Shown: positions 3,701 through 61,155 of the stretch, in pieces
Layout of the letters: each line of letters opens with the position of its first letter
Position numbering within the stretch: position 1 is the first letter of the stretch
NCBI RefSeq assembly: GCF_036588685.1
Contig: NC_086379.1
Coordinates: 20,708,001-20,772,000 of the forward strand
Source: Mytilus trossulus
Taxonomy: Eukaryota
DNA: 64,000 bases
Reading direction: 5' to 3'
Notes under the pieces: model-generated
Database searches by the model: none
What the model saw: only the letters and a program-made list of their open reading frames with translations
What the model was told of the DNA's origin: nothing
Program-made: the position numbers and the translations under genes

Positions 3701-6700
3701 ATATGCAAATCTTCCGTGTTATACAAAATGGCATATGACATACATGCAAATATTCCATGAGGTACAAAAAGGTATACATACAGAATTTTTATTAGGTACG
3801 AAAAGTCTTCCATAAAGTACAAAATGATATACTTGTTAATATTTTATGGGTACCAAATGGTCAATACACAAAAGCGTGATATTCCTGACTAGGTATAGGC
3901 ATTTTCAAATGTAAAAAATTGTGGATTAAACCCGGTTTTATAGCGCTAAACCTCTAACTTTGATGATAGTCTCATATTTACAATGATGCGTGAACTAAAA
4001 GAGAGGCGCATGAGGACATTCAAATTCATAGAAAGAAAATAAAATTATAAAATTGCTAAATTACGAAAATGATAAACAGGCAACCAACATAGGAATGTAA
4101 AGACTGAGGGAAGCAAAAAAAAAACAGGGAATGATCTCAAGTTTTCCGGATAGGTAAAGATATCTTGCTCCGATTCAGAATGATCAAATAAGAGGAAAAG
4201 GGGACGGGATTAAAGTTACTTGTTTGGATTTCTTTACTTTTTTTATCTGAGCGTCACTGGTGTGTCTTATGTAGACAAAACTCACGTATGTCACGTTTTA
4301 TTTGTACTGTAGTCCTGTCATGTAACATTGCCATAAAGCGAAAGGTTTGGCTAGCCGCAAAACCAGATTCAATCCACATTTTTTCTTAAAATGTCCTGTA
4401 CCAAGACAGGAAAATGGCAATTGGTATCTTATAACTCGTTTCTGTGTGTGTTGCATTGTCATTTTGGGGTTTTTTCGCACTTAAGTGTTTCTGTTCTTTC
4501 GTAGTTTTCCTCTTATAGTTGATGTGTTTACCTCATTTTTATTTTGTAACCCGAATTTGTTTTCTCTCAATTGATTGATGACTTTCGAACAGCTGTATAC
4601 TACTGTTGCCTTTATTTACGACAAATGGAAGATATAAGCTATCGTATGTTAACAGAATATTGGCATTTTTGGGAAATTGATTTTTTTTTTAGAATACACG
4701 TTCTTCGAACTAACAAATATGTCCTCAATCAAGAAATGCAGCTTCTCAATAATGTCAGTATCAGAGACAAGATACTTGGAATAACTGTTTCACAGATGAT
4801 ATCGTATATTTTCCTTATCACGTAACAAAAAACCCTTCCCTTTTTCCCAATTTGACCGGGTTTGTAATGACATGAGCAACACGACGAATGCCAAATATGG
4901 AACAGGATCGTCTTACCCCTTCGGAGCACCCGAAGTCACCCCCGTTTTTTTTTGGATGGGTTCGTGTTGCTTAGTCCTAAGTTCTCTATTTTGTATCTTT
5001 TGTACTATTTTTTTGTCTTTTTTGTTAGCCATAGCGTTGTATGTTTATTTTCGATCTTTGAGGTTGACTGTCTCTCTGGTATCATCCGCCCCTCTTTTAT
5101 ATTTAGAGTGACATTCCTTTTTGTTAAATAACACATGACCAACTAATCGAATGTGCCTATCTTAGCTTTGAAGCACGGCATAGATCGCTGGTAACATTAA
5201 TGTTAATAAAGGCGTTAGATGTTTCATGGAGCAGTTCGTAATTCCAGCAATATAACGTTGTTTTGCCAGGACACTTTTGTAGTTTAGGTATTCAATACAG
5301 TAATGGAAGATCCATGTCTTCATCTTTGGTTGACATCTTAAAGGAACATAAAACAGGGCTAATACTTCCTCCTTGGTATGTAATGGTGGGTATGAGTTGA
5401 GTTTCAAAGCGAATTGTCGATACCCAATTCATATGTCAATGTCTGTTAAACACAGATACGATGTCTATCTGCGGAGACTGGACAAAATAGCATTACTTGG
5501 TAGAGAGAAAATGAATTTAAACCATGTACACAAAACCATTCCACTTGCCTTTCTAAACTTGTAGTTCAGTACTTTTGTGATTATACTTTTTCGATAAGAC
5601 AAAAAATTCTTAGCCATGTTGTACACGGAAAAACAACACGCACCTGATTTTGTGTGCAAAGTTAAAATGTCCTTGCTATTTCTGAAATGTTAAGAAGGCA
5701 TCCAAAAAAGGCTATTGGTTGGATATGGGGGCTGAGGAAAAACAAAAAAGTTAGCACATTACATTATGTTACAGGTATTACGTAGAATTGTTAAATACTC
5801 AATATGCCATGCTTGAAACACTATTTGATTATTACTTACTTCACCCCAAAACGATAGTTGGAGAATATTTGATTATTTGAATATTTAATTGTACAACATA
5901 CATAACAATTAAATCAAAATGATCTCAAAATTTTTTTAATGCGCTACTGACGAGTCTTATGTAGACGAATGTAGATGGGGGTAAGTTGACAGAATTTTAA
6001 TATTTACATTTACTATACATGTAGGTTAAAGCACCATCTATATTTTTACTGAGATAGTTCATGTGATAGGTAAATATAAATATGATATCAAATAGGTTTT
6101 ATATCATTTATCTATGTCTTCATACGGACAATCAAATATGAAGCTTCAATTATTATCTTGAAAAGATTAAATTTGGAACAGAGGTATAATAAGAAAATAG
6201 ATATGTTTATAAAATGGAATGTCATATCATGTACGTGATACTTGTACACAACATGGATTTTATTTAAATACGTAATTTTCGGTTTATTTCTAAAGTATTA
6301 CGATCATACTTATACGATAGCAAAAGAGATATATGAAGAAAAGATTCTAAATGTTAAAGCCATTGCAATGTAAGTTTAAAATTTCACAGACGATAGACTA
6401 GGATGTTTCAAATACACACCCTCGAAATTTTCCTGATAAACTTCATATTATCATCATTATATATATATTCAATCTTAAATTGAGAGTAAATTATCTGGCC
6501 TTCCAAATACCGTTTAGATCCCTAACATCACTGAAGAGACATATATTGTCGAAATCTAGATCTGGTGTACTAAAGAAATATTGACACCGAATGTTTGTGG
6601 CACAACATCGTAGCCACTAGTTAACAATTTTTTTTTCTGTGACGTATTAAATTTATATTCAAATTCATTTTGTTACATCTTGTGATCAATTTTATTTGGC

Positions 6701-9700
6701 AATCGTCAATGGCAGTCAGCAGGGTTAAAGAACATCAGTTGTTCGACCTGTTAGTCAAATGCGTTTTGTTTAAATATACTTTTTCACGTTTTTGGTCTTT
6801 TGGAAAATGTTGTTTGTGCTGTTTTTAGATCCTTCTACAACGAAATTTGTTTGACATGCACACGTATAAAAATGGCGGTTTTTATCCAACGCAATAATAG
6901 GTTTGAACGTAGTTTTCAATTTAGACTCGTATATATATATATATATATCCAATAGACAAAACCCCAAGATTTGTCTACTGTATGAATTGAAAACAAAACA
7001 TTTGTTTGGTACTCTTTCGAAATATACTTTCGTGCAATACAAATATTTTGCACAAAAATATCATAATTTATATTGCACAAAAGTATATTTCGAAAGAGTA
7101 CGGATTTAATGATTTCTAATAAAAGTATTTTTCATAAAGTGCATTATTTTAACATCTTACCTTTAATTAGTTTTAGAAACAAAAAATCTACAATGAAATA
7201 TGCAAGTGTTTTTTTTGTCAATACCAACCTCCTTATATAACAATAGTCATGTTATTAAAGTAAAATGACACAATAAACACTTAACTGTCTTTGTTCGTGA
7301 GAAAGTAATAGATGAACCGGAAAAAAGCTTTTGTTACTACACTTCTGTATTCAACTTCCCGTATACTGTATGAAAACATGAGAAACCGGAAGAAATAATT
7401 TGATCATTAAATGTAGCAGTGTAGATAACACACTTCTCCAAAAATGATCGATATATTCGCTATCTTGATTATTTACAGTATTGAATATATATACGCAAAT
7501 GGGGGTAGGTATGCGTTTCACATATTCTATATTAATCTTATATCTTGTTTTTCTTTTGTTTTTCTTAATGAGATTATTTATGTGACAGCTCAACAATAAT
7601 TTAATATCTGGCACGTGGTTTTAAGTTATTTCAAGCCTCATGTATATGATGAGTCCATCTATCTTTATAACTGGATAAACAATGAAACGTTAAGCGTCAG
7701 TTATTGTCCGAAAATTTTTATCTTAAAGTAGTAGATGGAGTCATAAAATTTATATTGGTAAATTAATATAATTGCATATGAATATCTAAATGTCCACGTG
7801 CATATATAATTCGTTAAAGTTAACACCTTTTTAAACAAGTTCTATTTTGTTTTTATTCATAATTCTTTTTCTTACCAGTAAGATAGAGAAAAAAAATATA
7901 TAGTTTCTGCATAATCTGGTCGTTGCGAGTATAAATGGGTACAATGTGAAACATTCATTGTACACATGCATTATCCAGATTTAAGTAGGGTCCTTGTTAC
8001 TTAGGCTTTGGTCTTTTATGTTGTGACATGTGTATTTTATCATTTGTTTGTCATTTAATTTTTAGCCAAGGCGTTGTCAGTTTATTTTCGATCAATGACA
8101 TCAAATGTACCTCTGGTATCTTTTGCCCCTCTTTTTTGAAAAATAGGGGTGGTTTTTGGAAATACACTTTGATTTAATAATTTGTAACGAGACAATAGAT
8201 ATAGGAAGATGAGGTGTGAGTGCCAATTAGGCAATTCTCCATCCAAATAACAATCTATAAAAGTAAACCATTATAGGTCAATATACGGCCTGCAACACGG
8301 AGCCTTGGCTCACACCGACCAAAACGCTATAAAGGGTCTCAAAATAACCAACGGGAAAAAAAGAACAAGACAAGCTTGCAATACCAAATAAACTAGATCC
8401 ATATTAAAACCGTTATGAAATGATTAAAACTTTTATAATGAATTCATTGAACAATTATTGAAGTTGGTCGCATATGTACTACTAAATTTAAGATAAAGCT
8501 TATCATAGGTACATGTACAGTTTCGTCAGCTTCATTATCCTACCTTACTTTCTGACATTGACAGTAAACCTTGGATGTGAACAAACCTTTTCAACAAAAG
8601 GGCTGCCTACAATCAGTTTTCCTGTTGTCATTTTTCAATTTCAGTGCATAATTATTCAAGGCAACGGTATTAAAAGTGTCACTTTATAAAGTCTTAAATA
8701 TCTATTCAGAAAGTTGTTCACAATCAAACTTTCTGACGAAGAGTAGTCAGGAAAAAGACGAAGTTTTCTTTAGCGCATTTACCGGACTCGTTTTTTGGTC
8801 GTTGTTGTAAATCATATGAATGACACATATATTCTTTTTATTTAAACGTTTGTTACAGTAACAAAGCACGTCATTTTCTAGTTATTGATTTGCTGATACA
8901 AAGCAAATTGAAATTGAGAATGGAAATGGGGAATGTGTCAAAGAGAAAACAACCCCACCATAGAATAGACAACAGCAGAAGGTCACTAACAGGTCTTCAA
9001 TGTTTTGTTAGATGGTATTTGCCAATTAGGTGTCAGTAACATCGAGTTTACTCAGTACTAGATTTTTTTTGTTGTTGTAAGGGATGTATATGTATAGATA
9101 CCCTACAATGTCCTGTCTGTTTTTTGTGCTAGATTTTTTTCTGATTTTGTACTGTTAAGCCACTGTTCGTGATTATAGTAGGGTTGGCACCTTTGATATT
9201 TTCTATATGTGCCTGTTCGAATTCAGAATCCTGTAGTTCAGTGTTCGTCGTTAGTTCATGTTTATCGTATTTATTGTTCGTAAATAGTTCGTTATACATT
9301 TTGCCTTAGTTTTCATAATGTCGGGTCATATTAAAGTCTATTCCACGGAACGGGTGTTAGTGATTGTTGATTTTGCTAATTGCCTACATTGGTTGAAAAA
9401 CCACTGCATTTGAACTTAGTTGTTTCCTAGATGTTTTTTTGATGAATGATTTATATGTAAACAGTTATGGTGATAGAATACAATTTATAATAATTACCAA
9501 AGCTGGTGTACGTAGTATTATGCTTATCTATATGTCAAACGTGCATTGCCTTCGAAAACTAAAGTTCCGATGAATTTGACATGAAAACGTTTTGAATTAC
9601 TGCAATATCACTATTGTTTCGGAAATGTAAAATAACGAACATTTTAGCCACTATAATAATATTATTTATAACATTAACGGTACACATTTTCCTGCACCAG

Positions 9701-12700
9701 ATGCGCATTTCGACAATACATGTCTCTTCAGTGATGCTCATGGCCAATATTTTTGAAATCCAAAGCTTATTTAAAAGATGAAGAGCTTTAATCCAAAAGG
9801 TCCAAAAAGTATAACCAAATCCGTGTAAGGAATCAGAGCTTTGCATGAGGGAGATACATTCCTTAATTTATAATAATTTTTAACATTTTGTAACAGGAAA
9901 TTTTATTAACACAAACAAGTCTGTATATTCATGCCAGTACCGAAGTACTGGCTACTTGGCTGGTGAAACCCTCGGGGACTAAAATTCTACCAGCAGAAGC
10001 ATCGACCCAGTGGTAGTAATAATATTAACGGTACCAATTTTCCTGCACCAGATGCACATTCCGACAATACATGTCTCTTCAGTGATGCTCGTGGCCATAA
10101 TATTTGAAATGCCAAGCTTTTATAAAAGATGAAGAGCGTATTGAATTAGATTTAAAGATAATTTTCAGTAAAATCTTAACATTCTTGATTTTCTTGTACT
10201 CAGCTTTGTTGGAATGTTTGCTCATAATTTCTCTTCAAATTTGTATATGATTTCGCATTCGTTCTAATCTGGTTATATACTTACTTACTATTGTATCTAT
10301 GGTGACCATAATGTCTTACAAATGGCGTCAAACAGTAGAAATTTGAAGTTTAAATTTGCTGTCTTTGCTTTTTGATTATATAACCCATAACCCAGATATT
10401 CCAAGAAAGGCATTCTGATTCTTTCACGCAGATACTGCTATTATGATATAAATACACAACTCATATGCATCAAAGCAACCAAACAAGTAAGAATATTTTG
10501 ATATTAGAGTGGAGGTATCTAAGCGTTGGGATCTACTCATTGAATATTATTTGAATTTTAAGGAAAACATTATGGATATTATATTCAAAATGAAACATTA
10601 TAGGATTAAACACATTTTTTCTACAGGTTATTGATGTGTAAACCGGGGCGATTAACTCACAAACTGAATAAAAGTCCGAAGAAAAAATGTGTTCTTTTCC
10701 ACCTTAACTTTATGATTTGATCGTCTTCGATTATTAATTTTTAGAGGAAACGCGTGTAAATGACTTTGGTTATCTTAATTTATCTTTTGTTTAATTGACT
10801 TGACTATGTTATTGCATGCACTTGTGGTCTGTCTCATATAACAGATTGGACAGCCATAGTTAACATTTGACTATCAAAACGTTTTTGAAAGACAGTTTGT
10901 GAATAATGCATTTCTGACACGAAAGAAGAAGACAATTTTACCGTTAAAATCTTTAAATGTGTTTGTTTAAAAATATTAAGCCAGAGTTTTTCTGACGATC
11001 AAAATGAAGAAAACTTTTTAACTTTTTACGATACTTTATTCCTGACATGCATAAAATAATTGTGTAGAACCACTGATACTCCATTATTTGTTAAGATAGC
11101 ATAATTGTACGAAAGGGACAACATTGTCTGATAACTCACAAATAATTTATGGATTTAAAATAAGACTATTATTTGCGATTATGTGATAGCATATTTTCAT
11201 ACTCTGACATTTATTTTTATCTAATAGGTTGACATATTCATAAAAAATACAACAATTCTTTATCATACCTTTGGTCTTTGTTTCATTTCCTTTCTATCTG
11301 CCAATATTTGTGTTATCAAAGTGAAATGACATGAAACGCTTCATTGCATTTGTTCCTGGGAAGGTCAGAGATGGACCGGAAAATACCATTTATAAATAGT
11401 GTGCATACAACTTCCTGGTTGTATGAATTTCTTATTAACCGGACGACATATTTTGATATCTGAATGAGGACTAAACACATGTTTCGATTATGTTTGATGT
11501 TTTCTATTGTGTTATTCTTAACACTATTGTACATAGATTTGTAAATGGGGGTAAGTTGACAGAATTTCAATATTTACATATACTATACATGTAGGTTAAA
11601 GCACCATATATATTTTTACTGAGATAGTTCATGTGATAGGTAAATATAAATATGATATCAAATAGGTTTTATATCATTTATCTATGTCTTCATACGGACA
11701 ATCAAATGTGAAGCTTCAATTATTATCTTGAAAATATTAAATTTAGAAAGGAGATATAATAAGAAAATAGATATGTTTATATAAATAGAATGTCATATCA
11801 TGTACTTGGTGCTTGTATACAACATGGATTTTATTTAAATCCGTAATTTTTGGTTTGTTTTTAAAGTATTACGATCATACTTATACGATAGCAAAAAAGA
11901 TATATGAAGAAAAAAGTCTAAATATCAAAGCCATTGCAATATAAGTTTAAAATTTCACAGACGAAGACTAGGAGGTTTTAAATACACGCCCTCGACATTT
12001 TCCTGATAAACTTTATATTATCATCATTATATTGTTTTTAATGGACAAAACCCAAAGATGTGTCTACTGTATCAATTCAAAACACAACATTTTTTTGGTA
12101 CATTCGAAATATACTTTTGTGCAATACATATATATTGAACAAAAATATTTATATATAGTATTAATGTATATTTCGAAAGAGTATCGATTTAATGATTTGT
12201 TTTGAATTGAAATAGTAGACAAATCAAACTACCATACATACGTTCATTTGATTTCTAATAAAAATATTATTTAGAAAGTGCGTTATTTTAACATCTTACA
12301 TTTAATTAGTTTTAGAACCAAAATATTTACAATGAAATATGCAAGTTTTGGTTTTTTTAAACCAACCTCCTTATATATTAATAGTGATCATATTAAAGTA
12401 AAATGACACAATAAACACTTAACTGTCTTTGTTCGTGAGAAAAAAAAATCTTGCTACTACACTTCTATATTCAACTTCCCGTATACTGTATGAAAACATG
12501 GGAAACCGGAAGAAATAATTTGATCATTAAATGTGGATGACACACATTTCCAAAAATGATTGATGTTTTCTTTATCTTGATCCTAAATATTATTGTATAC
12601 AGATATTCAAATGGGGGTAGGTATGCACTTGACATATTCTACATTAATCTTTTTTGGGGGATTATTTTATAATGTGATAATACATGTGATAGATAAACAA

Positions 12701-18700: not shown

Positions 18701-21700
18701 CCGCTTTTATGCCAATGTTAAATAAAAGATTAAAATGACAACATTACATGACAGGACTACAATAGAAATAAATGGGTGAACCTATAGGACAGAGAAACAC
18801 ACGAATAATAACTAAAAAAAGGTGCCAGGTTTAAATTCTAATAATGCCAGACGAACGTTTCATCCACACAAGACTAACCAGTGACGTTCTGATGAAAAAT
18901 GTTCGAACGCACAAAACAAGCAAAAGGGTACAAAGTTAAAGAGCATTGAGGACAAAAAGTTCTAAAAGGTTAGCCAAATACGGCTTGGGTTTCTGCCTGG
19001 GATGAGAACATCCTTATCATTTAGAATAATTCATACATTTGCAAACAGTATTTTGTTTATAAACTGACCAAATAATAGATAAAAATGATAAAACCGGTGA
19101 ATAACTATAAAATAAAATCTAATAAATAAATAACCTTAACCAGCATATAAAAATTCACAGCCGCGTTAGCCAAATCGATAAACGCACACATTTAAGTGAA
19201 GTCACCTTTGAATTTCTAAAAATTTCCCCAAAATATAGAATAGAATTAGGAAAGAAATCAAGATTAGGTTTGTAATGTAGATATAACATTTATTAATAAC
19301 AATGAAAATTACAATACTAAATAATATCAAATTGTGGTAGTAATAAGTTAATTAATTTATTATTTAGCTATGTCGGAATTTTTTTAAATCAAACTGTTAA
19401 CCAAATAGATCGTATATAAACTATTCAAATACAACTTAAAATTACCTGCAAATATGTAAAAGAGACAGAAATTGAAAAAATAAATTCCCACTTCCGGTTA
19501 CGGTGGTACAGAATCATGCAATCGAGTAATAGAATGGAGGTGAAGATGTGTGATGAAAAAGTCTTTTGAAAGATAGATTATTTTTTAAGATATACAGAGA
19601 GCTCGAATGATGTATTCCTTTTCAATATTGTAATTCGTTCTTACAACTACAGGAACACAATGTTGTACAGTTCAGACCAGCCCTATAACACGTGCATCTT
19701 CAAGAAAAAGTTTTCTAACATCAAAATTGTATACCTCCTGTTGCAGCAATGTCTACTAATTGTTTAAATTGGGTATCCAAAACCCATCTGTTGTCTCCTT
19801 AACAAATCCCACATCCACCCGCTTAGATATTGTTTATGTATGAATACCTGTCCACAAACATGACCAACTTGATGTGCAGCTCGTTAAATGTGCTCAAGCA
19901 GTGACGCTCTGTTAGTTGGAATAGTGCCATACTGTTTAATTCGCGTGCAAGATTTATTGATGTCAAATGTTGTTATAATATCGTACAAAATCACAACAGA
20001 AACCCTATATAAGCTTTACTGACCAAATGCAAATTTCTTTTGCAATCGTCCATACCCCTCGGTTACTTCATCAATTATTTACCATTTCTACTATGCCATG
20101 TATGCTGACTGCTTTCCTTTTTCTTTATCAAGTAATAACAGTGTCACATTCAATCAACATATTGAAAAGGCTAAAATTACTGAGTTAAGACCAGGAGATT
20201 GATCAATTTTGCGAATCAGAAGCCATCGCCATTTTTTTTCAAATGCAACCCAATGTGTTTTTACTTGTAGTGTCTTAAATAGAGATATCACCAAAACCAC
20301 AACATCAGATCTGAGCTGATTTTCAGTTTCGACTCACATCCCCGTCTAGCTGCACTTCTATATGAGAAACATAATTGTGATCGCTTCCTTGTGATTACTC
20401 GGACTACGATTAGCATGGTAGTAATAAGTTAATTAATAGAATTTGTCACAACAATGTGTTCTTGGATTCAGCACCCCTAGCTCTACGGGTTTATGCTTTT
20501 AGGCTAAAGACCATTTAATATTTAATCATGTAATATCTTCACCCGTCAACCGAACCGTATTTAACTTATACTTATTCTGTCAATTCATGATTAAATAGTC
20601 ATTGTTTTGAATGCAAGTTGTTTTAGAAAGATATCCAGGTTTTATGTTCATGAAAACATTAGGAAGTTTAGATTACGTTTTAGATTTTTGTAAACTTGAA
20701 GAGTATATTATTTTACCCTTTTTTACGCCAACATGATTCTTTCATTTGATACTGAGAAATAGAGATTATGGTAAATGAAAGGTGATTTTAGAGATATATT
20801 TAGCTTAGGTTGTGGTCTATGATGTCGACCGCAGCTGTGGTAGGTAAACACTTTGTCTTAAAATAGAAAAAGGCAAACGACATCATTCATTTAACGTTCA
20901 ATTACAGCTTCTTCCAGTTGAGTAACCACAAATATTTCAAGTATCTGATTTTAAGAGATGCACAACACCCATGTTGAATAATGTATCATTAAACTTTCTC
21001 AAAACGTTCTTATGTTGTACTGTTATACCACTGTCCCGGGTTAGGGGGAGTGTTGGGATCCCGCTGACATGTTTAACCCCGCCACATTATGTGCCAAGTC
21101 AGTACCCTGTAATTCAGTTGTTGTCGTTTGTTTACGTGTTATATATTTGTTTTTCATCCATTTTTTTTATATAAATAAGGCCATTAGTTTTCTCGTTTCA
21201 ATTGTTTTACATTGTCATATCGGGTCCTTCTATAGCTGACTATACGGTTTGGGCTTTGATCATTGTTGATGGCCGTACGGTGACCTATAGTTGTTAATGT
21301 TTGTGTCATTTTGGTCTCTTGTGGAAAGTTTTCTCATTGGCAATCATACCACATCTTCTTTTTTTATATTCATGACTTACTACGTTTATAAAATAAAGTG
21401 ATCAACAATATAACCATAGAATGATAACTCAAATATTGTGTGAGTTAAATATCCGAACACTTCTGATAATCAGGCCGAGTGATTATCCTTTTACCAGCTG
21501 TATAACAATTTTTTGTATGTGATACAACTTAATTAAAAGTTTGCTCTCATTTACCAAGATTGTTTATTCAGTATCATTTTATTTCCATGCGATATGTACA
21601 CCATGCAGGTGATCATGCACCTTCTCCTAGGTTCTGTTCACTTGCATTAACACATTCTGTCGACGATTAAAGTACGACTCCATGACTTAAATTAATTACT

Positions 21701-24700
21701 ATCATAGCACTATGATTTCAACAAATGTTAATTATTTATAAAACCGGAAGTAAGTCATCGATCTTAATTTGAACGGAAATGATGTTCTACTACAACAGCC
21801 AGACAAATAAATCTTCATTCACTTCACCTAGTACCTTTCTTATAAATTACAAGCATTATGTATGCAAAATAGACCAAACATTCGATTGTTTTAACTAAAC
21901 AACGGCATTTTGAAAATGATCGAATAGATTTTTTACTTGACTATCCCCTTACTATGATAAAATACACCTAAAGGCATGTTCTTAAAAAGTTTCATGCTTA
22001 TATCACAATTTGCATGATTTGTGTAGTAAGCATCTTAACTAGTCGTATTACATGTTTCACATATTCTATTGAAAATCTGCAATCAAAGTGAATGTAAAAA
22101 TTATGTTAAATTTCATCTAAATTTAACATTGATTGTGCACATTCTTGAGTTAAACATTGTAACATGAGATACAAATTCACTTGAATTTCACACATACCAA
22201 TATTTATTCCATTTTTTCTAATGGCAAAATTGAATAATTTCAAAGATGTCAAGCTTTGTGTCGATATTTAATTTTGAGGTAACTTCTTTTTTTTACAATA
22301 TTTAGGATTTAAAAGAGGATAGAAAAAAAACAGAGGACATTTCAACTCATACGTCGAAAACAAACAGACAACGCCATGGCTAAAACGAAAGAGACCACTA
22401 TACAAACAATGGTAAATAAAACACAACATGGAAAACTAAACACTCAGCAACACGAACCCCATCAAGACTTGGAATGTTTTCATGTGCTCCAGAATGGTAA
22501 GCAGATTCTGCTTCACATATGACATCCGACGTGTTACTCGTGTTATTACAAAAGTTTTATTAGGGAGGTCGCATTCGGGATGATGGCTTCCGTAAAACTA
22601 ACAAAGGAATGACTTCAACTTCACCACTTTGAACTCTTGGTTAAATAGCTAAAAGAGGGACGAAAGATACCAAAGGGACAGTCAAACTCATAAATCTAAA
22701 ACAAACTGACAACGCCATGGCTAAAAATGAAAAGACAAACAGAAAAACAACAGTACACATGACACGACATAGAAAACTAAAGAATAAACAACACGAACCC
22801 CACCAACAACTAGTAGTGATCTCAGGTGCTCCGGAAGGGTAAGCAGATCCTGCTCCATATGCGGCATCCGTCGTGTTGCTTAGCTAACTTGTGACCAGCA
22901 ACCCTCTCTCAAGAAAACCATAATAGGAAAAACAAGGTCTTGAATATCGTGTCAACTGGAAAATATATACTCCGTATACAGGTGCCAATTGGTTGTTGCT
23001 ACATAGAAATGGAAAGTTCACAATTGGGATGTCAAAATCTCTATTGCCATAAAGTTGTCTCTTTTCAAAAAAGTAAAATAACAAACATATTGAGCTCCGC
23101 GCAAAAAAAGTCCCTAATTAAATTGCAAAATCAAAAGCTTAAACAAACGAATAGATAACAACTGTCAAATTCCTGACTTGGGACAGGCATTTGTTTGGTA
23201 AAAAAAGTGGATTGAACCTTGTTTTATATTTAGCTAAACCTCCCAACAACAAATCATTGTAAATTTTTGAATGTGAGTCAAGATATGACTCTTAACTGTA
23301 TTTGTTGTATCTTTGATCTAAATTTCGGTGGATGTACTAGGCCTCGGTGGCCGAGTGGTCTAAGTAATTACTACTGTAATCACTTAGGCTTCCTTCACAA
23401 TACAAAATCGGCCGCCACGATAAAGCCCAAAGGCGGTGCTTACAAATTGCATTAAAACACCAAAAATAAAAATAAATCGAAGGAGGTAGATGCTTTTAAG
23501 TATTGAGCATTTCGAACAAAAGATAGAAACAAATATTTTGGTTATGGAAAGAGTAAACCTTTCTTTTTACAATTTTTTTTCCCTTGCTTTACATTGCTAA
23601 GTGAAAGCTGGCTTATAAAGTATTTAGGACTGGCTATATTTCACCTTTAATTAATACATATAGAAAGAACCTACATCTAAAGGTAATGTTTGACATACAC
23701 ATTTGATAATACGTTAGAAAACTTTTTTTTCAAAATGTCTTCTGTCATCAATAAAATATCGAATCCCATTACTCGAGTAGATACTGCAGGCATTCTAGAG
23801 AAACTTAAAATTGATAATGGAAATGGGAAATGTGACAAAAAGACAACAACCCGACCATAGAGCAGACAACAACAGAAGGTTACCAACATTATTCTATTTT
23901 TCGGTCATTTTGTTCGGTTTGTGTTGCTCAATTACCAATTTGCTGTAACATGGTATCACAAGGTGCTACATTTGTATAATGAAAAAAATCACGATATATA
24001 GAGTTTGAAAATAAGATATATGAACTACTTCCTTTATATAGAATGTTGAAATTAGAATGCAAATACTATTATTAAATTATATTATTGTAGCATGTAACAT
24101 GGAACAGTAAATAGTTATCAAAGGTACCAGGATTATAATTTAGTACGCCAGACGCGCGTTTCGTCTACATAAGACTCATCAGTGACGTTCATATCAAAAT
24201 ATTTATAAAGCCAAACAAGTAAAAAGTTGAAGAGCAAAAATGTATATACTAATCGCGCCTCGCTGATTTGTTTTCATTGACAAAAAATGGCGGATCCGGT
24301 CCACTTTGATTGTTTTCTTTGATCAATCGAGGGAATAGAAAGGCAGACAACGATGGTGATAAGGTTAAATTCTAGGCCAAAACAAGTAGGGCTTTTTATA
24401 GCTGACTATGCGGTATGGCCTTTGTTCATTGGTGATTTGTTTTCATTGACAAAAATGGCGGACCCGGTCAACTTTCGATGTTTTCTTTTATCAATCGGGG
24501 GAATAGAAAGGCAGACAACGATAGTGATAAAGGTAAATTCTAGGCCACACAAGTTGGGCCTTTTATAGCTGACTATGCGGTATGGCCTTTGTTCATTGGT
24601 GACCTATAGTTGTTTATTTCTGTGTTCTTTTGGTCTCTTGTGGAGAGTTGTCCCATTGGCAATATTAACACATCTTCTTTTTTATATATAAAACGAATAG

Positions 24701-27700
24701 TTGTGGTGAAATTGAAAAAAAATCCAAGTGAGGTATATCTCATAAATGAGGGACTCACCATCAGGCAAGGGGTAGCTTTACTGTTGAAGAAAAGATAAAA
24801 AGGGGGGAATCGTTTCAATTGGTACAATTTTTCTAAAAGAGGGTCCCATTATATTTAATGATAAAGCAGATATATACAGGAATAATATATGCTCGATATC
24901 CATATGATGAGGACATACTCTTTTGCCAAATTAAGCTTACATGTCAGTAACTGCTAGCCATCCATTGTTAATTTATGTTTATGATTGGCGTTTTCCTTAG
25001 TTTTTTCTTCATCTATTCTTACATCGGCCTCGGATATCTTTTAAACTTAGTATTAGTCTGCGTATTAATGTGTGCATGTTTATTTCACATTAATAGAGGT
25101 ATACGGTGAGGTTACAAACTCAAAAAACACGTTTAACCCCTTCATTTCCTCCATCCCCCTCCCCATCCCACCCCACCCCCGCATGTTTGCGCCGGTCCCA
25201 AACTCAGGAACCTCTAGCCTTTGTGCTGGTTTATTTTATATGTTATATAAATAAAGTGTGGAATCAATTCCGGTGAACCAGTATACATTATTGTTTAAGA
25301 CCCAGCTGAAGCCCACTATGGTTGCGGCATTATCTGTGTTGAAGACTAATTGATGGCTTTGTGCTGTCTTATATTCTTTGGTCGAGTTGTTGTCTTTTTA
25401 GGTGTCATACCACCAATTACTCCCTCAAATTTAGAACGTATGTGAAAATAGGCCTACTCGGACAAAAAATAGTGCATTTGATGTCATTGTTTTCTTAAAC
25501 TAACCAAAAAATTGGCAGAAATGAAACTTTTGTTGAAAGAACCATTTTGAGCTAAAATTTACTTGTTTATCAGTTTGCATTCAAAATTTAGGATTAATGC
25601 ACTCCATAGTATACTAATTTAAGATTTCCAGAAAACCAGGGGTTATTTTTAGTGGTACCTCTATTCGGAAGACCTTTTCTTTTTTATATGATTTTAAACA
25701 TCTGAAAATTGGCATGTAGAAAGCTGATACATGTACGATTCAGGATATACCTGGATATCTATGAAGTTAAACTTAAGGTAAAATATTTATAAATTTTGAA
25801 AATTGTAAAATTTGATTGAACAGATCGGGACTTTTTAATTGGTGGTATGACACCTTTAGCACATTGGCCGTTTCCTTTACCAATTTTATAGAAATGTTTT
25901 GAATTTGAATTCAACGATATATTTTTTTCTTCTTGTAGGATGCTTCAGTTTGAATACTAGTCTAAAGAGTGGATTTCATCGTGGAAACTTTTCGTTTGGA
26001 GACAATTCCGCCACCAAATGCTCAAGGGCCTGTCCGAATAAAACAGAATATATCTTTATGAGGGTAAGCTACCCAAATTTCAATTGAATCTCAAAATAAT
26101 ATGTTTGTGTTTATTTTTCTGTAGCGTTATGGAATTTTCCATTCGGTCCTACATGATATTTAAGTGCGTAATGCTGCAAGTCATGAATATAATCAATATA
26201 TGTGCTGGTATAGCGTATCTTATAGCGCGTCGGACGCACGACATTTGTACGTTATGTTTTCATTTTTTTCTAACTGTTTACAAAATCGATCTATTATTTG
26301 ATATAATCTTACTTTTCTTTTACATTTTCATATCTATGAATTACAAACCAACGTTTGATTTTTGTTGAGAGAATGAACTTTATCTGAACTGTTATTAGTA
26401 TGTTAATAACTTTAGATTTGGATCCTCAATGCTCTTCAATTTTGTACTTGTTTGGCTTTATAAATATTTTGATATGAGCGTCACTGATGAGTCTTCTGTA
26501 GACGAAACGCGCGTCTGGCGTACTAAATTATAATCCTGGTACCTTTGTTAACTATTTACACCACTGGGTCGATGCCACAGCTGGTGGACGTTTCGTCCCC
26601 GAGGGTAACACCAGCCAAGTAGTTAACATTTCGGTGTTGACATGAATATCAATAATGTGGTCATTTTTAAAAATTTCCTGTTTACCAAACAATGAATTTT
26701 TACGAAAAACTAAGGATTTTCTTATCCCAGGCATAGATTACCTTAGCCATATTTGGCACAACTTTTTGTAGCTTTGGATCCTCAATGCTCTTCAACTTTG
26801 TACTTGTTTGGCTTTATTAATATCTAGATATGAGCGTCACTGATGAGTCTTATGTAGACGAAACGCGCGTCTGGCGTACTAAATTGTAATCCTGGTACCT
26901 TTGATAACTATTAATTATGTGTATACGATTCATTTTAGGATAGAGAATGTCTTTGTATTCCTTTGGTCAATTTTCACCAGCATAACACATATAGTGAAGA
27001 AAATACTGGTGCTTGCAAGAATACTTGCGATGGAAATAGTAGAGACTTGTGTGGCAATGCTACGTCTACTGAAGGAAAGGAGATGTACAGTGTCTATAAA
27101 ATAGTTAGCAGTATGTAATGCATTTAAAATACTCGCAGTTACTGACAGCTAATGTAAAGCCAAAACAATTCATAAAATAATCATGCAACTTACTCTTCCG
27201 GAGCACCTGAGATCACCCCGGTTTTTAGTGGGGTTCGTGTTGCTTAGTCTTTAGTTTTCTATGGTGTGTCTTGTGTACTATTATTTGTCTGGCTGTCTTT
27301 TTATTTTTTACCCATGGTATTTTCAGTTTATTTTCAATCTATGAGTTTGACTGTCCCTTTGGTATATTTCGCCCTTTTTAAGACTAACATATCAATCAGG
27401 ACACACCCAACATCCAAACGATTTCGTTTTAAGACGTATTAAATAGTCAAAGAAAAACATGACCTTGTGTAATGTCAAGATACATGTATCGACAGATTGT
27501 AGAGCCGTGAATGTGCAACAATACTTAGTGTGATTTTAATATGCTGATAACAAAAATTAATACCTATACTTAAAAAAACTAGAGGTTCTAAAGATCCTGT
27601 GTTGCTCGCCTGTATTTACTGATGCTTTGGACATCATGTAAAATGCGATTAAAATCATAATTTATAGTATACGATATCATTAGATACTATAATAATATCT

Positions 27701-30700
27701 AAGATAATAGCAAAAACTCCAAAATTTCCATAAAATTACTAACTCAGGGGCAGCAAAAACAACTGGTTGTCGGATATGTCTGTAAATTTCATTTTCATAC
27801 AAATATGAACGTATGGGAAATGGCAAATTTTCATACTTCAACGAAAACAAAACAATTATGAAACTTTTTGCAAACTAATATTTGCATGTACTATCTTGCA
27901 CAAATGTTAAGTTTTAAAAAATTATGTCAAACTTACAAATTAAACAAACAAAAGACAATAAAGGAAATATGTACATTTTTTTTAACAATTACTGCGATAA
28001 TGATGACGTCAGTATGTACATTAAAGATTTATCCTACCGATTGGACTTAAATAAAGTTAACACTCACACTGCTATCTTTAACAGGAAGCATAATACCAAA
28101 ATGTATGATAAAAGAGATTATTTTTCGTGTCTTATAGTTAATTATATGTTATCAGATGATTACGTTATCTTGTCAACATCTTAAGGGCATACAATACAGT
28201 TTCAGGGGAGGTAATGACGTTGCTAACGTAACTTGTTATTTTCGCGACGTCAAACTGTGACTTATAAGGAAAAGATACAGTTTTCGACTGATTTTAGGTA
28301 TTTCACATCCAATCTTTTATTGTTATATTTGTTTAATTTGTAAGTTTGACATAATTTTTTAAAACTTCGGTTTTCACATGAAAATCTGACCAAACCTTTT
28401 AACAAGGGATATAGTTACGATACTGGTATTAGGTCCATAAAGAAGACATATGTTGGCTTTAATATTGATTCACTTATAGGGTTTTATGATGGTTTAATAC
28501 TAAACCCTTAAGGGGAGGGATTGTGCTTGATTTTCATATGATAAAGACATACTATTTCAATCAGTTTAGTTGAAGTCTGGAGCTGGCATGTCAGTAACTG
28601 CTAGTAGTCCTTTGTTTATTTATGTATCATTGTTATTTTCCTAAATTTATTGTGTTACCTAACATGACATCGGACTCTGTCATCATTTAAACTGAGTTTT
28701 ACTGTGCATATAACAGTGTGTTTCTTTACTCTACATTGGCTAGATGTATAATGTTTCATTTACTGTTATCAGTTTTTTGTCCCTTTTCCATTCCTTGTTA
28801 TCTGTTATAATCCAAATTAATTTGCTGTTTTGCTGCTATTGGAACCCTCATTGCCCCCTTTTTCATCTAAAGTCGCGCTCATGTTGTTTATCATTTAAGT
28901 AATGATTTCCTAACCATCAGTGTTCAATGTCACATTTTATATTATGTTAAGTTATTATTTTTTAGGACGCATTTCAAAAGTGGGGTTTGGAGACACTTGT
29001 ACAAAGACGATTTTGGACGAGAAGAGAATTTACAAATTTATTTACACAACTTGTACTGCCGAACAGAATTATATCTGCGAAAGATTTGATAAATCTAGTA
29101 CGTTAAATTTTATTATGTATTATAAAAAGCCTATGGTGTATTCTGTCTATTTCAGTAGTATTCATAATTATTTTTGTGTCCATAAGAGACAATCTTACAT
29201 TCCATAAATATGCATAGGTACATATGTGCATCAACTAATAAGAAATAAATATCATTGAACTTTTAAAAAAGAATGCAAAATTTTTCGGAGCTTTGAAAAA
29301 TGATACAATATGCAATGCTTTGGTGTGTAATTCTTTAATCAAAGACCGCATTCCAGAACCATACAACACTTTATAAAAGAGTCACGTTTTATGGAAAAAA
29401 AGATAGTGGTTATTAGAAGTTCAAAAATATCTGGTTATTAAACGGAATATATATATTTTCATAAAAGAGAAGACTTATTTTGCCATAACGACATATATCA
29501 TTTATATTGTGTCGTCCCAAAAATACGTTCTTGTCTCATTTTTGTCATTTATAAATATTGCGAGCTAATTTCATTGATAGTGTGTAACAAAAGGCATGTT
29601 TTCATTATACATTTTTTTTTTTTTTTAGCTCAAACTTATCCTGAAACCTGTCATTATGAAACTGTATCATGGAACACTGCTCAAGAAAGTTGCCAGGAAC
29701 AGGGTTTGCATCTTCGGTTACACACTAGCACTACGCCTACATGTTTACAAGGACATAATTTCTGGAGTGGGGATCATATCGTAGATCAAATTGTGTGGGC
29801 AAATGGTATTAACATTTTTGGCCTTTGTTACTATAGCAACATATGCATATGGGAATAAGGTCAAAATTTACAATGTCCTATTCACACTGAATTATAAGAT
29901 ACATTTTACCCATGTTTGCATCAGAGTTAGACACAATACTGAATAGTTTCGTTCGTACTTAGTCTTGCTTTAATGAACGTGACCTGTTGAATTTGATTTT
30001 AAGTTTCATAATATGTTTTACGCTTATAACATACATTAAGGTTTTCACTGGGAGTATATCTGTTTTTGATCAATATTCCTTATATTCCCTTATTTCTTTG
30101 TATATTTTATTATATAGTGTTATAAGTGAGATGTTACTTCTTATAAACTATTTTTTCTTGTTAAATATCCATGTAGATTTTGTTTCCTCAGGAATAGATT
30201 ACCTTTAAGTTAGCTGTATTTGTCAACACTTAAAGGAATTTTTATCTTATATGCTCTTCAACTTCGTACTTTATTTGGCCTTTTTCTTTTTTGGAAACGA
30301 GCGTCACTGATGAGTCTTTTTTAGACGAAATGCACGTCTGGCATTAATACAAAATGTAATTCTGGTATTTGAATTTATTTACAACATCTGGGTTGATGCC
30401 ACTGCTGGTGGAGTTTTAATTCCCGACGATATCACCAGCCCATGCCAGTAGTCAGCACTTTTGTGCTGACATGAATTATCATTGATATGGTCATATTTAT
30501 ATATTAATTGTTTACAAAACTTTGAATTAATGAAATACTAAGGGTTTTCTACCTCAGGAATAGATTACATAAGCTGTATTTGATAAAACTTTTAGCAATT
30601 TCGGTCTGCAGTGCTCTTCAACATCGTACTTTTTTTACCTGTTTTCCTTTTTTTGATTCGAGGGTCACTGATGAGTCTGTGTATCTATGATGAGTTGATT

Positions 30701-33700
30701 TCCTACTTTAGGCTGCAATTAGGAAAGACACAATATCATATATTTAACCTTATTTTGTTATTAATGTCATTTGCTAGAAAGAGGAATACATATAATGCAA
30801 GTTATCGATGGTTTCATATTTATTCAATCATCTTTTTTCACGAATTTGTTCTTATAGTTATCAAAAGTACCAGGATTATAATTTTATACGCCAGACGCGC
30901 GTTTCGTCTACATAAGACTCATCAGTGACGCTCAGATCAAAATAGTTAAAAAGCCAAATAAATACAAAGTTGAAGAGCATTGAGGACCCAAATTTCCGAA
31001 ACGTTGTGCCAAATACGGCTAAGCTAATCTACTCCTGGGGTAAGAAAATCCTTAGTTTTTCGAAAAATTCAAAGTTTTGTAAACAGAAAATTTATAAAAA
31101 TGACCATATAATTGATATTCATGTCAACACCGAAGTGCTGACTACTGGGCTGGTGATACCCTCGGGGACGAAACGGTCTGCTCAATAATATAACTTATCT
31201 TATTTCTATGCCCTCGCTGCTAGGCGTCGGGGCATAAAGTGCTATCCTTGTTCGTCCATCCGTAAGTCCTTTCCGCAATTGGTTTCCGTTCTCTAACTTT
31301 AGTTTGCTCAATCAAATTTTATAAAACCTATCCACAATGCTTATTTCTACAATACACAGATCAAGTTTGAAATTGAGTGGCATTACTTTATCTCTTATTG
31401 AGTAATTTCCTTTTATAAATGAAAAGTTGTAACGTTCATCTAAATAGAATGAAATTATTTTATTAAAAACAACAATATAAAATAGCAAAGAAAATGTATT
31501 TCAGAATATTTATTCCAGTAAAATCTTATATTAAATAAAGATTCACCTATTAAAATCGATGGAAATCCTAGCATATTTGTAAATATACATATTATGCTGG
31601 ATTTGGAAAATATTTGATAACCTCACATATTTGCATGGAATGTGCATGAATGTTACATATATTCCAATGAAAGATATATTATTTTGGGCAAACGAATGAA
31701 GTTGGCCTCAACCGAAAGCGATAAGATTAATACATAATGCCAATTACAATAAAACCAAGATCAAGTTTGAAATCCAGAAACATCACATTATACCGTTTAT
31801 GAGTTATGATTCTATGAATATAAAAAATGCAGTTTTTTTCGTTTCTGTTCTCCTTCTTCAGCTTGTCTCAACTAAATGTTATAAAACTTATACACAAAAC
31901 ACCAAGTTTGGAATTAAGTTGTGTTATTATCCTAGAGTTATGTCCCTCGGTAAACATAAATATTCTTAATCTGTGATGTTCCTTCTCTTGTTGTAGTTTG
32001 CCTCGGCCGAATGTATTTAATCTTTAACACCATGTTTATAGTCACAAGAAAACTGTCAAAATAACGTGAATCTTGCATCTAAATGTGGACGTTGACTCAT
32101 GCATATTTACGAGCTGGGGCATCTGTGACCCATAGACACATTCTGCATTTTTATAACATTCCTTTTGACAATTTTTTAATTGAAGTTTTGAATAGTTTGA
32201 TTTCTCTTTACTCTTGGTAAATTATCTGACATAAATAAATATCTTTCGACTTCGTACGTATATTTTATAGATGAAGAATTACGTTTTTACTTCATTTGCC
32301 CAAGGTATATGAGAAAATCATCGACTTAATATCTTGAACAAAATATCTTAATGAGTTTGATATAACATTATAATAGTAGTACATTTTTCAATATTTCAAA
32401 ATTCGTGAATTATTGAAATCACCTAAAGCCAGCCTTTGCTTGACAGATGCATATCAATTTACTGTGTTTTAGTATTGTTTATGATAACTGCCAAGTATAC
32501 TTATTAAAAGAGTATGATACGTTTCAGTAATTCAAGTAAATCCGACATTTACCTTTGTATCTATCAATTGATTCATACAACTTAGTTATAAAATAATGGT
32601 ATCATTGAAGGACCACAAACATTCTAATTTTTAACAAATTGTAATGGATAATTCTATAAATAATCTTTTTGATACAAAATTTTAGATACCTTACCGACAG
32701 ATGCTTTGTGTCTGAAGTTAGTAATAACTGAATCCGGTTCCAGTTTTGAGACTGAAAATTGCAGCACTTCATTGTATTCATTATGTTGTAAGTACTTTTT
32801 TAACTTTTGTGTATGTTAGTTACAACAGAAAAGTTGCAACATGTAGGCCTCTATTTGTAAATCTTTTATATCAAGTTGTGAAATAAAAGTAAAATAACAA
32901 ATTTAGAGAACTCAAAGGAAAATTCAAAAACAAAAAGCCCATTATCCAAAGGAAAAATTGAAAGGTCAAACGATTGAGTTTATCCGTTCGGTCTTAAAAT
33001 TTAGATATGAAATGATCTATATTTTAATTATAAATATATTGGAATTTATTCAATTCAAAAGCTATATCATGACGTCGGGGGATTTGTATTTGATGTATGC
33101 AGAATTGCCATTCGTTTAATCTATTATCAAATAGATAAACCTCCGACACAAAGCACTTGTAATCTGTATCTGAATAGAATTAAATTGTGAAAAAACACAT
33201 GTATAATCTATACCATTAAACGAGAAGATCTCATTTTATGTGACGCTTCTCTTTGTTCCACAATGAATAAATCATCATGCCTTTGTTTCCTTTAGGTACC
33301 ATGCATAGTCAGATTTGTCATCCTTGCTTATGATTATTCCGTTTGTGTTTTGGGAGAAAACCATAGCAAAGGCGTCCGGATATCGTTTCCGTCATCGGCT
33401 AGACTTTTAAGTAATAGACTAGAATTCGTTTAGAAATTACACATAGTTTTCATTAAGGTCGAAATGGGGGTAACTTCATGACGTAACGGTTAAATTTCTT
33501 GACAATGACGTTGACGGTAATATTTGGTCAGAAAAAAACTTCATTATTAAAATAAATATATTTTTAAAATTTTAATCGGTCAAAATTGCATGATATTCTA
33601 CATTTATATTTATTCAGGTTTGTACGATTAAACAAAAAAAACTTGTTATATCATTAGTACTTACCAAACGAATATAATAATTTACTCAAAAAAGGAATAT

Positions 33701-51602: not shown

Positions 51603-52222
51603 ATTCATTGAACACACTGATGATATGTCTAATTCATTGAACTCACTGACGTTATGCCTCATTCATTGAACACACGGACGATACGCCTCATTCATTGAAC
51701 ACATGGACGATATGCTTCATTCATTGAACACACTGATGATATGCCTCCTTCATTGAACACACGGACGATACGCCTCATTCATTGAACACACGGACGATAC
51801 GCCTCATTCAATGAACACACGGACGATACGCCTCATTCATTGAATACACTGATGATATGCCTCATTCATTGAACACACGGACGATACGCCTCATTCATTG
51901 AACACACGGACGGTACGCCTCATGCGTTGAACACACTGATGATATGCCTTATTCATTGAACACACGGACGATACGCCTCATTCATTAAACACACGGTCGA
52001 TACGTCTCATTCATTGAACACACGGACGATACGTTTCATTCATTGAACACACGGACGATACGTCTCACTGATTGAACACACGGACGTCTCATTCATCTAA
52101 CACACTGACGATACGTCTCATTCATTGAACACACTGACGATACGTCTTATTAATTGAACACACTGATGATGTGCCTCATTCATTGAACACACTAATGATA
52201 CGTCTTATTCATTGAACACACT
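51603..52222. repeat. 29-bp minisatellite, about 21 units (ATTCATTGAACACACGGACGATACGCCTC)
   Basis: Head-to-tail units with no spacers. Confidence 0.95.
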
Positions 52223-52718
52223 AAAACTGAGGAAAAAACATCACATATAAGAGGAGAACTACGACATAACAGAATCACAACATTTAAATTTAACACACAC
52301 AGAAACGAACTATAATATAACAATGGCTGTTTTCCTGACTTGGTACCGGACATTTTTAAGAAAATCAATGTTGGGTTGAACCTGGTTTTGTGGTATTCCA
52401 ACCCTCCCGCTTATATGGAAATATTAAATATGACATTATTATGACATCATTACATGACAGGACTATAACACAAATAAATGGGAGAACATATAGGAAAGAG
52501 AAACAAACGGTTAATAGCTAACAAAGGGTACCAGGTTTAAGATTTATTACGCCAGACGCGCTTTTCGTCCACACAAGACTAATAAGTGACGCTCAGATAA
52601 AAAAAGGTCGAAACCCAAAACAAGTACAAAGTTGAAGAGCATTGACGACCAAAGGTTCCCAAAAGTTGTGCCTAATACGGCTAGGATATACTAGAACATC
52701 CTTATTATTTAGAATAAT

Positions 52719-60824: not shown

Positions 60825-61155
60825 CATTTGTGTTCTTTCTGGAGATTCCGTGTATCGTCAATTCGGAATTCCAATGGGGACTAATTATGCACCACTTATT
60901 GCGAACCTGTTTCTGTATTGTTATGAGTTACAATTCATGACTAAAATCAGCAAAGACTCATTGACACAACACTATCTACTATATAGTATTAATTGTTTAA
61001 CTCAGAGAAATCTGTTATTAAACGAAATTAATGTACTTAATGTCAATTTTACTATTGATTTACTATTGTTTGGTGATGATGCTTTAAGTACTGAAGAAAA
61101 TGAAAATATTTATTTATCTGTTCAAAAGTATGTAAAATATTCCAAACGTTTTTCT
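60825..61155 (+). mobile_element. Penelope-like RT fragment fused to a CR1/L2-like ORF2 C-terminal fragment
   Basis: YRQFGIPMGTNYAPLIANLFL is PLE RT motif B. LLLFGDDALSTEEN..I...VQKYVKYSKRF is a typical LINE ORF2 terminus. Confidence 0.7.

Follow-up and report, generated by a model that had tools for sequence, protein, structure and literature searches.

Type I hammerheads in two related repeat families of Mytilus trossulus, likely non-LTR retrozymes with a palindromic helix III

What does a palindromic loop do in a self-cleaving RNA? The question is raised by a 64,000-nt stretch of Mytilus trossulus DNA (contig NC_086379.1, positions 20,708,001 to 20,772,000; hereafter the window). The original prediction described two hammerhead families here that differ in sequence, retain their pairing, and carry a palindromic loop 3, and it read these features as signs of selection for dimeric self-cleavage and possibly of family-specific dimerisation codes. 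Here, we propose, with a probability of roughly 80%, that the type I hammerheads belong to two related families of 350–361 nt Mytilus units (A and B) that are likely non-LTR retrozymes, processed as double hammerheads and re-inserted in a Penelope-type manner. The motifs, compensatory changes, units, A/B homology, host genus, fixed 3′ end, and a strand skew in two RNA runs are observed, and the steps between them are proposed from modeling and analogy.

Hammerhead motifs and their repeat units

A descriptor that imposed no requirement on helix III found six intact type I hammerheads in the window, compared with a mean of 0.02 (maximum 1) in 50 shuffles. All six have the CUGANGA and GAAA-UH core and helices I–III with helix I open; helix I is 6 bp long, helix II 4 bp, and helix III 2 bp with a palindromic tetraloop. 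They are located at 6525–6568 (+), 9694–9737 (−), 24145–24188 (−), 26478–26521 (+), 26834–26877 (+), and 30888–30931 (−), where stems, cores, and loops agree with those originally described. The idea that core changes are confined to N7 holds in 7 of the 14 parsed copies of the window, but the cores of the remainder are broken. With the Rfam Hammerhead_1 model (RF00163; cut-off, 34 bits), only the copy at 24145–24188 exceeded the cut-off (36.1 bits). Four further A-type copies scored 27.9–33 bits, and family B and the copy at 6531 had no hammerhead match at E ≤ 1.

The family A insertion at 26413–26912 (+), 1.4 units of 356 nt, is situated in an intron of a host WSC-domain gene on the same strand and ends 27 nt before an exon. 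It contains two intact hammerheads, at 26478–26521 (octamer ACGCGCGT, predicted cut after 26515) and 26834–26877 (predicted cut after 26871). A solo copy at 24107–24236 (−), extending from −85 to +44 around the cut, and a 5′-truncated copy at 30854–31175 (−) carry the intact hammerheads at 24145–24188 and 30888–30931, respectively. Two family A copies are degenerate and keep the palindrome: a solo copy at 2900–3035 (+; −87 to +43) with a broken core and a copy at 55214–55308 (+; −51 to +43) with a mutated GAAA. Subfamily A2 forms a tandem with 361-nt spacing at 30176–30700 (+); in its hammerhead at 30301–30344 (+), the octamer is not palindromic and one pair of stem I is broken, and the second hammerhead, at 30668 (+), is partially deleted. 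The degenerate subfamily A3 copies at 18815–19081 (−) and 52510–52749 (−), the latter outside the interval originally described, have broken cores and share a 3′ neighbor that is also found at 4217–4290. The family B insertion at 9668–10137 (−), 1.36 units of 351 nt, carries the intact hammerhead at 9694–9737 (−; octamer ATGCGCAT) and another at 10045–10088 (−) with GAAA mutated to GGAA.

The unit spacings are 356, 351, 361, and 350 nt, and each of the four tandems seen is of a single family. Families A and B are 67–68% identical from end to end and their flanks align with a score of 200, compared with 27 ± 5 for shuffles, so they are related 350–361 nt units. As in retrozymes, which carry one type I hammerhead per tandem unit of 150–450 bp at a GC content below 50% and lack an ORF, each unit has one type I hammerhead, at a local GC content of ~0.33. 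No ORF of at least 100 aa was found inside the A or B tandems, whose interior is 230 nt of non-coding sequence. Pfam named none of five ORF pieces. The counts rest on the window and on the 7 of 30 metagenome loci that belong to the same families; viral and GTDB scans gave one unrelated locus each. An anti-hammerhead 9-mer is present in family A only and is absent from B and A2.

A domain at 26559–26643 (+) is 81% identical between A and B, compared with 58–71% in the rest of the unit. It contains an invariant 7-bp stem and a UUCG hairpin with three double-sided changes, and it starts where the terminal copies stop. Rfam gave no second known ribozyme in this domain at E ≤ 1. The domain also carries a B-box-like 11-mer with one mismatch to the consensus. 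A Pol III SINE reading of the unit is disfavored by the four to five runs of four or more T in each unit.

The intact hammerhead at 6525–6568 (+; octamer ATCTAGAT), the 6531 copy, had been assigned to family B with T-CTAG-A as its helix III. Its stems are B-like, but its flanks are unrelated to A or B, with scores of 25–31 against either family, which is the shuffle level. On these scores we also reject a diverged A/B unit, and its position in the MAFFT alignment is a forced one. We call it element C. It is a single copy in the window, located between (TA)n runs near 6460–6469 and 6931–6947.

The hammerhead fold, the palindrome, and the predicted double hammerhead

Between A and B, 9 of 20 variable paired sites differ and all 10 variable pairs are kept (P = 2.4e-4 under a random-change model). 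Across the eight distinct sequences, 97.3% of cells pair, compared with at most 47.9% in slid controls, and double changes are present at 7 of the 14 pairs. The full compensatory covariation originally claimed is thus seen in all variable A/B pairs, but it comes from two independent contrasts, A versus B and B versus the 6531 copy. This sequence pattern supports selection on the hammerhead fold. The original claim of selection for dimeric self-cleavage is thus supported as regards the fold, whereas the dimer is probably not obligatory. Obligate dimeric hammerheads of the newt and axolotl Amex1 type are defined by little activity as monomers and by at most one pair in helix III; all intact copies here have two pairs.

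The self-complementary octamer is present in all six intact copies that the helix III-free descriptor found in the window; a random tetramer is palindromic with a chance of 1 in 16. The loop was said to be always palindromic, which is true of the intact copies but of only six of the nine full-length copies in the interval originally described. The exceptions are at 30307 (ATGCACGT), at 10082 (ATGTGCAT), where GAAA is also broken, and at 18881, where the core is dead. Overall, 8 of 14 parsed copies in the window and 6 of 8 copies of the same families outside it have the palindromic octamer, and the tetraloop itself has changed only once, in the single 6531 copy. The loop GCGC, common to A and B, is the Rfam consensus loop and recurs in two unrelated type I motifs (L003 and L009). 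Among unrelated type I motifs, 8 of 10 are palindromic, with four different loops, whereas none of five motifs without stem I is. In the explanation that we favor, the palindrome is likely a generic switch of canonical type I hammerheads, on in multimers and off in circles.

Folding was modeled with ViennaRNA, which scores neither the catalytic core nor the loop–loop contacts that favor the monomer. The double hammerhead was the cofold minimum for A/A (−29.5 kcal/mol) and B/B (−27.3 kcal/mol), and the C homodimer gave −20.8 kcal/mol. In the natural tandems, it was predicted at −96.8 (A) and −97.0 (B), compared with −79.7 and −84.4, respectively, for two monomer folds. Helix III of the monomer costs +0.8 (A), +3.1 (B), and +3.2 (C) kcal/mol, and the probability of stem I was 0 in the circle folds of all three units. 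The capacity of A and B to form a double hammerhead is thus supported in silico. We suggest that, in tandem transcripts, two hammerheads joined at their palindromic helix III would carry out the cleavage together. The single unit set free in this way would then be circularised, by analogy with the self-cleavage, circles, and RtcB ligation described for a sister species (PMC7229834). In the monomer circle, the hammerhead would be unfolded. For canonical type I hammerheads of metazoans, such a dimer is the textbook view (PMC4209133; PMC3088659, Fig. S8 legend), and the canonical type I switch resembles the double hammerheads of newt satellite 2 and ASBVd described there. Axolotl HHR_Amex1 differs in having, as described, a single helix III pair instead of the two found here.

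Alternatively, the hammerheads may act mainly as monomers through the 2-bp helix III and its tetraloop, with the palindrome inherited or only tuning the rate. We regard this as possible but rather doubtful. A single cloned repeat of M. galloprovincialis self-cleaves at ~0.1/min (PMC7229834), so in vitro the dimer is dispensable. Its authors regard invertebrate motifs as competent in monomer form, and most of these motifs cleave as monomers according to a review from the same group (PMC7229834, PMC7761336). Most insertions have only one hammerhead, and the family A helix III is cheap. However, the palindrome is retained in element C, where the loop has changed completely, and is widespread in the unrelated type I motifs, which would be superfluous for a monomer, and the double hammerhead is 13–17 kcal/mol better in the tandems. 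The published mussel rate is also 8-fold lower than the coral rate. In the double-hammerhead explanation that we prefer, the palindrome is helpful and probably not obligatory. The A/B, B/C, and A/C heterodimers are predicted at −13.4, −7.1, and +3.0 kcal/mol, respectively. A, B, and C may serve as natural, predicted-orthogonal double hammerheads for comparing monomer with dimer cleavage.

Copy ends and a possible Penelope-type re-insertion

Re-insertion of the unit may be carried out by a Penelope-type reverse transcriptase, a partner that we infer from the copy ends. Eighteen of the 23 insertions stop 32–47 nt downstream of the cut, at a homologous spot just before the conserved hairpin domain, and their 5′ ends vary. 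Variable 5′ ends combined with a constant 3′ end past the hammerhead form the pattern of a non-autonomous element mobilised by a Penelope-type element (PLE). This pattern resembles the internal priming of these elements, for which a tail of 30–40 bp (PMC8557442) and internal starts beyond the hammerhead (PMC11167929) have been described. We found no published description of fixed retrozyme copy ends. At the 5′ side, 5 of 17 ends lie between −85 and −89 (uniform null, P = 0.002; exponential nulls, P = 0.03–0.12; L013, L016, and L019, whose contigs end there, are excluded), a clustering that is suggestive only.

The likeness to PLEs includes copies that extend across an uncut hammerhead to a constant endpoint downstream (PMC8557442; PMC11167929; 10.64898/2026.07.22.740005), partial tandems, 5′ truncation, and the lack of clear adjacent target-site duplications. 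No convincing adjacent duplication was found in 10 insertions, and element C is flanked by (TA)n alone on both sides. Unlike PLEs as described in these sources, the mussel copies have no ORF and their hammerhead is canonical, not minimal; the offset is 32–47 nt here, compared with 85–92 nt after the cut in PAc (cut at +26, starts at +111–118). An autonomous PLE has an RT and GIY-YIG ORF between pLTRs, whereas the interior here is the 230-nt non-coding stretch. No autonomous Penelope element was found in the window, where a short RT-like fragment at 60820–60990 has weak support.

A more specific and tentative scheme is that the conserved domain binds a PLE RT that starts 32–47 nt after an uncut hammerhead on a linear RNA template with a fixed start at −85 to −89, which would leave a 127-nt pseudo-LTR. 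If so, each element would be a miniature PLE copied from uncleaved linear RNA and not from a circle. Because the copy ends point to a site of initiation and to a candidate domain for binding, they would allow tests of which reverse transcriptase mobilises animal retrozymes and which form of the RNA it copies.

RNA reads, remaining alternatives, and known retrozymes

In the family A bin of two RNA runs, first mates on the − and + strands numbered 825:223 (X22) and 928:265 (X23), a 3.5–3.7-fold skew. In the family B bin, the + to − ratio was 272:88 (X22) and 167:125 (X23), a 1.3–3.1-fold skew with the low value in X23. Both skews point to the hammerhead strand, provided that library preparation followed the usual stranded scheme. 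Six other high-depth repeat bins were skewed by at most 1.8-fold, and the A3 bin was skewed oppositely, 1.7–2.3-fold. The reads were mostly 85–95% alike to the window copies, and they derive from other copies rather than from expression of the window locus, because depth in the host-gene exon bins was near zero. Among the read ends listed for X22 and X23, none piled up at a predicted cut, and those at 26896 and 9938 do not coincide with cut sites; for circles or fragmented libraries, this absence carries no information. A read across the junction of a circle looks the same as one across the junction of a tandem.

The possibility that the repeat is satellite-like or passively carried, with the hammerhead a relic no longer selected, could appeal to the broken cores of half the parsed window copies and to A3, whose dead-core copies have spread to three places and share a 3′ neighbor. 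It is nevertheless highly improbable, given the retention of all 10 variable A/B pairs (P = 2.4e-4), covariation outside the ribozyme, the probable sense-strand RNA excess, and the retrotransposition pattern of dispersed, 5′-truncated copies with a fixed 3′ end. Equally remote is the suggestion that the helix III octamers are selected family-specific codes preventing cross-family dimers, which the original prediction had raised and which we do not retain. The heterodimers are much weaker than the homodimers, and each of the four tandems is of a single family, but A and B have the same tetraloop, GCGC, which is also the consensus and occurs in L003 and L009, and their octamers pair across families at 6 of 8 positions (−8.9, compared with −13.3 and −10.5). 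No code is needed because the partner hammerhead is present in cis in tandems of one family (4/4). Divergence alone yields cross-incompatibility, and the weaker A/B heterodimer (−13.4 kcal/mol) is expected of any two diverged, covarying ribozymes.

The retrozyme explanation has a close precedent. In M. galloprovincialis, 350–390 bp repeats of two similar families hold ~5000 type I hammerheads and are expressed as circles (PMC7229834). A and B are likely of the same kind, matched by genus, unit length, and the two-family pattern. The tandem arrangement and low GC content are further likenesses, and in some circles of that species, too, the ribozyme is predicted to be blocked. Published biology thus already includes two retrozyme families of Mytilus and a palindromic type I helix III. 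Seen here in M. trossulus are, in addition, the third, unrelated element at 6531 and subfamilies A2 and A3; the fixed copy ends and the conserved hairpin domain are absent from the main text on M. galloprovincialis (PMC7229834). Elsewhere in the window, the exon at 44199–44615 matches the M. trossulus protein LOC134724772 at 100% identity, and its 13 matches are all from Mytilus.

Hammerhead repeats and stem covariation

A descriptor search for type I hammerheads with helix III left unconstrained found six intact motifs in this AT-rich animal DNA; 50 shuffled versions averaged 0.02. They are located at 6531, 26484, and 26840 on the + strand and at 9731, 24182, and 30925 on the − strand, and all six carry a self-complementary octamer (helix III plus tetraloop). 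A model built from the copies gave 16 window matches, the best eight of which were its own training copies. The Rfam cut-off was passed by one window copy, with four further A-type copies scoring just under it; the family B and 6531 hammerheads were missed by the Rfam search. A 29-nt tandem array at 51602–52221 (21.6 copies), in whose unit CTGAYGA is common with no GAAA helix after it, is not a hammerhead. The AT-rich inverted repeat at 7009–7103, with sub-threshold miRNA-precursor scores, is probably a MITE-like hairpin.

The tandems of the retrozyme-like families A and B hold one hammerhead per unit, with spacings of 356, 361, 351, and 350 nt, and the two units are 67–68% identical end to end. 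The accessible text of a study on Mytilus galloprovincialis describes some 5000 type I hammerheads, carried by 350–390 bp repeats of two similar families whose RNA accumulates as circles ligated by RtcB (PMC7229834). Genus, size, and two-family pattern match, as judged by published description rather than by sequence, and the A/B repeats are probably a further instance of already known biology. In two RNA runs, assuming the usual stranded library protocol, the excess of the ribozyme strand was 3.5–3.7-fold in the family A bin and 3.1- and 1.3-fold in the family B bin; the skew did not exceed 1.8-fold in six other high-depth repeat bins, and a low-depth bin of subfamily A3 was skewed 1.7–2.3-fold in the opposite direction. 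The reads derive from other copies, and no pile-up of read ends was observed at the predicted cuts in these runs.

Covariation of the hammerhead stems is real but shallow. Across eight distinct sequences, 97.3% of cells pair (slid controls, ≤47.9%), and double changes occur in 7 of 14 pairs, two dimer loop pairs included. Families A and B have different bases at 9 of their 20 variable paired sites, yet all 10 pairs are kept (P = 2.4e-4 under random change). These counts derive from two contrasts, A versus B and B versus 6531. Because the pair closing helix III is required by monomer and dimer alike, the dimer idea is tested only by the tetraloop, which changed once, in the 6531 copy. That hammerhead (6525–6568, +) had been placed in family B. 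Its stems are B-like, but its flanks are unrelated to the A or B units (scores of 25–31 against shuffle means of 29–31; A versus B, 200 against 27), and it is a third element. This element C (6470–6930) is about 460 nt long, is flanked by (TA)n runs, and has the hammerhead near its 5′ end; no further copy was found in the window or in collection scans.

Palindromic loops and the predicted dimeric fold

The original prediction was mostly right as an observation; its interpretation holds where it repeats known biology and is unsupported where it is new. The loop is not always palindromic: within 6525–30931, six of nine full-length copies pass and those at 30307, 10082, and 18881 fail. The loop is non-palindromic in six of the 14 window copies that could be parsed and, outside the window, in two of eight copies (L025 and the second copy of L017, both metagenome loci). 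As the window copies concerned are otherwise damaged, we read their loop changes as decay after insertion. Among 15 distinct motifs from 25 loci outside the A/B families, a palindromic loop was found in 8 of the 10 with a stem I of at least five pairs (four different loops) and in none of the five without one. The unrelated type I hammerheads of nine metagenome loci with 45–59% GC (L003, L006, L008, L009, L012, L018, L024, L026, and L030) have palindromic GCGC, AGCT, GATC, or ACGT loops, that of L006 being palindromic by wobble.

As to the proposed family-specific dimerization code, there was no sign of selection for discrimination. A and B have a common tetraloop, the Rfam consensus loop is that of family A, the A and B octamers pair at six of eight positions, and the partner hammerhead lies in cis. 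Heterodimers are predicted to be weaker than homodimers because of divergence.

By folding, a lone helix III is unfavorable (+0.8, +3.1, and +3.2 kcal/mol for A, B, and C, respectively), and the predicted cofold minimum for A/A and B/B is a strand-swapped double hammerhead. In natural tandems, the predicted advantage of this structure over two monomers is 17.1 kcal/mol for A and 12.6 kcal/mol for B (L017), and the structure comes within 1.2 (A) and 4.4 (B, L017) kcal/mol of the free minimum; stem I is folded in none of three predicted monomer circles. The predicted folds fit a known switch, in which multimers are cut and the circle remains closed, as stated for canonical metazoan motifs in the accessible parts of PMC4209133 and PMC3088659 (Fig. 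S8 legend). The dimer is nevertheless probably not obligate: a single M. galloprovincialis repeat is described as cleaving at about 0.1/min (PMC7229834, accessible text), invertebrate motifs mostly cleave as monomers according to the available part of a review (PMC7761336), and the energy model leaves out tertiary contacts. Nine nucleotides at 26589–26597, absent from B and subfamily A2, are complementary to the family A stem II–GAAA region and pair with it in the predicted circle.

Fixed copy ends

The 3′ end could be read in 23 insertions and falls at one homologous spot in 18 of them. Of these, 11 are in the window, two being tail-only pieces (near 1358 and 13588), and seven are in outside loci. 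The spot lies 40–47 nt past the cut in A types and 32–33 nt past it in B, where this stretch has lost 7 nt. The exceptions are 4290, 42301, 1039, 5969, and 50556, the last a weak internal piece; two A3 insertions among the 18 with a common neighbor are probably a single event. Since copies ending past the cut span the cut site, the template was either a circle or RNA that had not been cleaved. Conservation within the unit is highest (81%) in a part that begins directly after the fixed end and holds a covarying UUCG hairpin. At the start of this part, a B-box-like 11-mer (26566–26576) folds into a 3-bp stem capped by a loop of 7 nt.

The fixed end parallels the tail of Penelope-like elements (PLEs), as far as the accessible text of PMC8557442 describes it, and internal initiation of an anole PLE, whose main substrate is unprocessed RNA according to the part available of PMC11167929. 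A 2026 preprint, in its accessible part, argues for a PLE origin of animal retrozymes; the words "tail," "initiation," and "Mytilus" are absent from its text. A literature search, with subscription papers mostly outside its coverage, found no publication that treats fixed ends in mussel retrozymes. Among 17 5′ ends, five lie at −85 to −89, with both families represented (P from 0.002 to 0.12 by choice of null); if real, this cluster favors a linear template whose start is fixed. A short reverse transcriptase–like fragment with a GIPMGT motif, which we take to be PLE-type, lies at 60820–60990; Pfam gave no match for it, and the Atlas returned a single cluster in which 13% of members carry RVT_1.

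Host gene and subfamily A3

The exon at 44199–44615 is 100% identical to M. trossulus LOC134724772 (13 of 13 matches Mytilus), a + strand host gene whose exons extend over about 11490–44615. Sense-strand hammerheads at 26413–26912 and 30176–30700 lie within introns of this WSC-domain gene, and the A tandem ends 27 nt from the exon at 26939. Host read-through could feed the retrozyme precursor, and a hammerhead cut could affect the host pre-mRNA.

The cores of the three A3 copies, 4217–4290 (+), 18815–19081 (−), and 52510–52749 (−), are broken differently. All three run on into one common 3′ neighbor, another repeat, which is 79% identical over 202 nt between two of them. A3 is possibly a composite in which the ribozyme came to be carried by another element and then degenerated.
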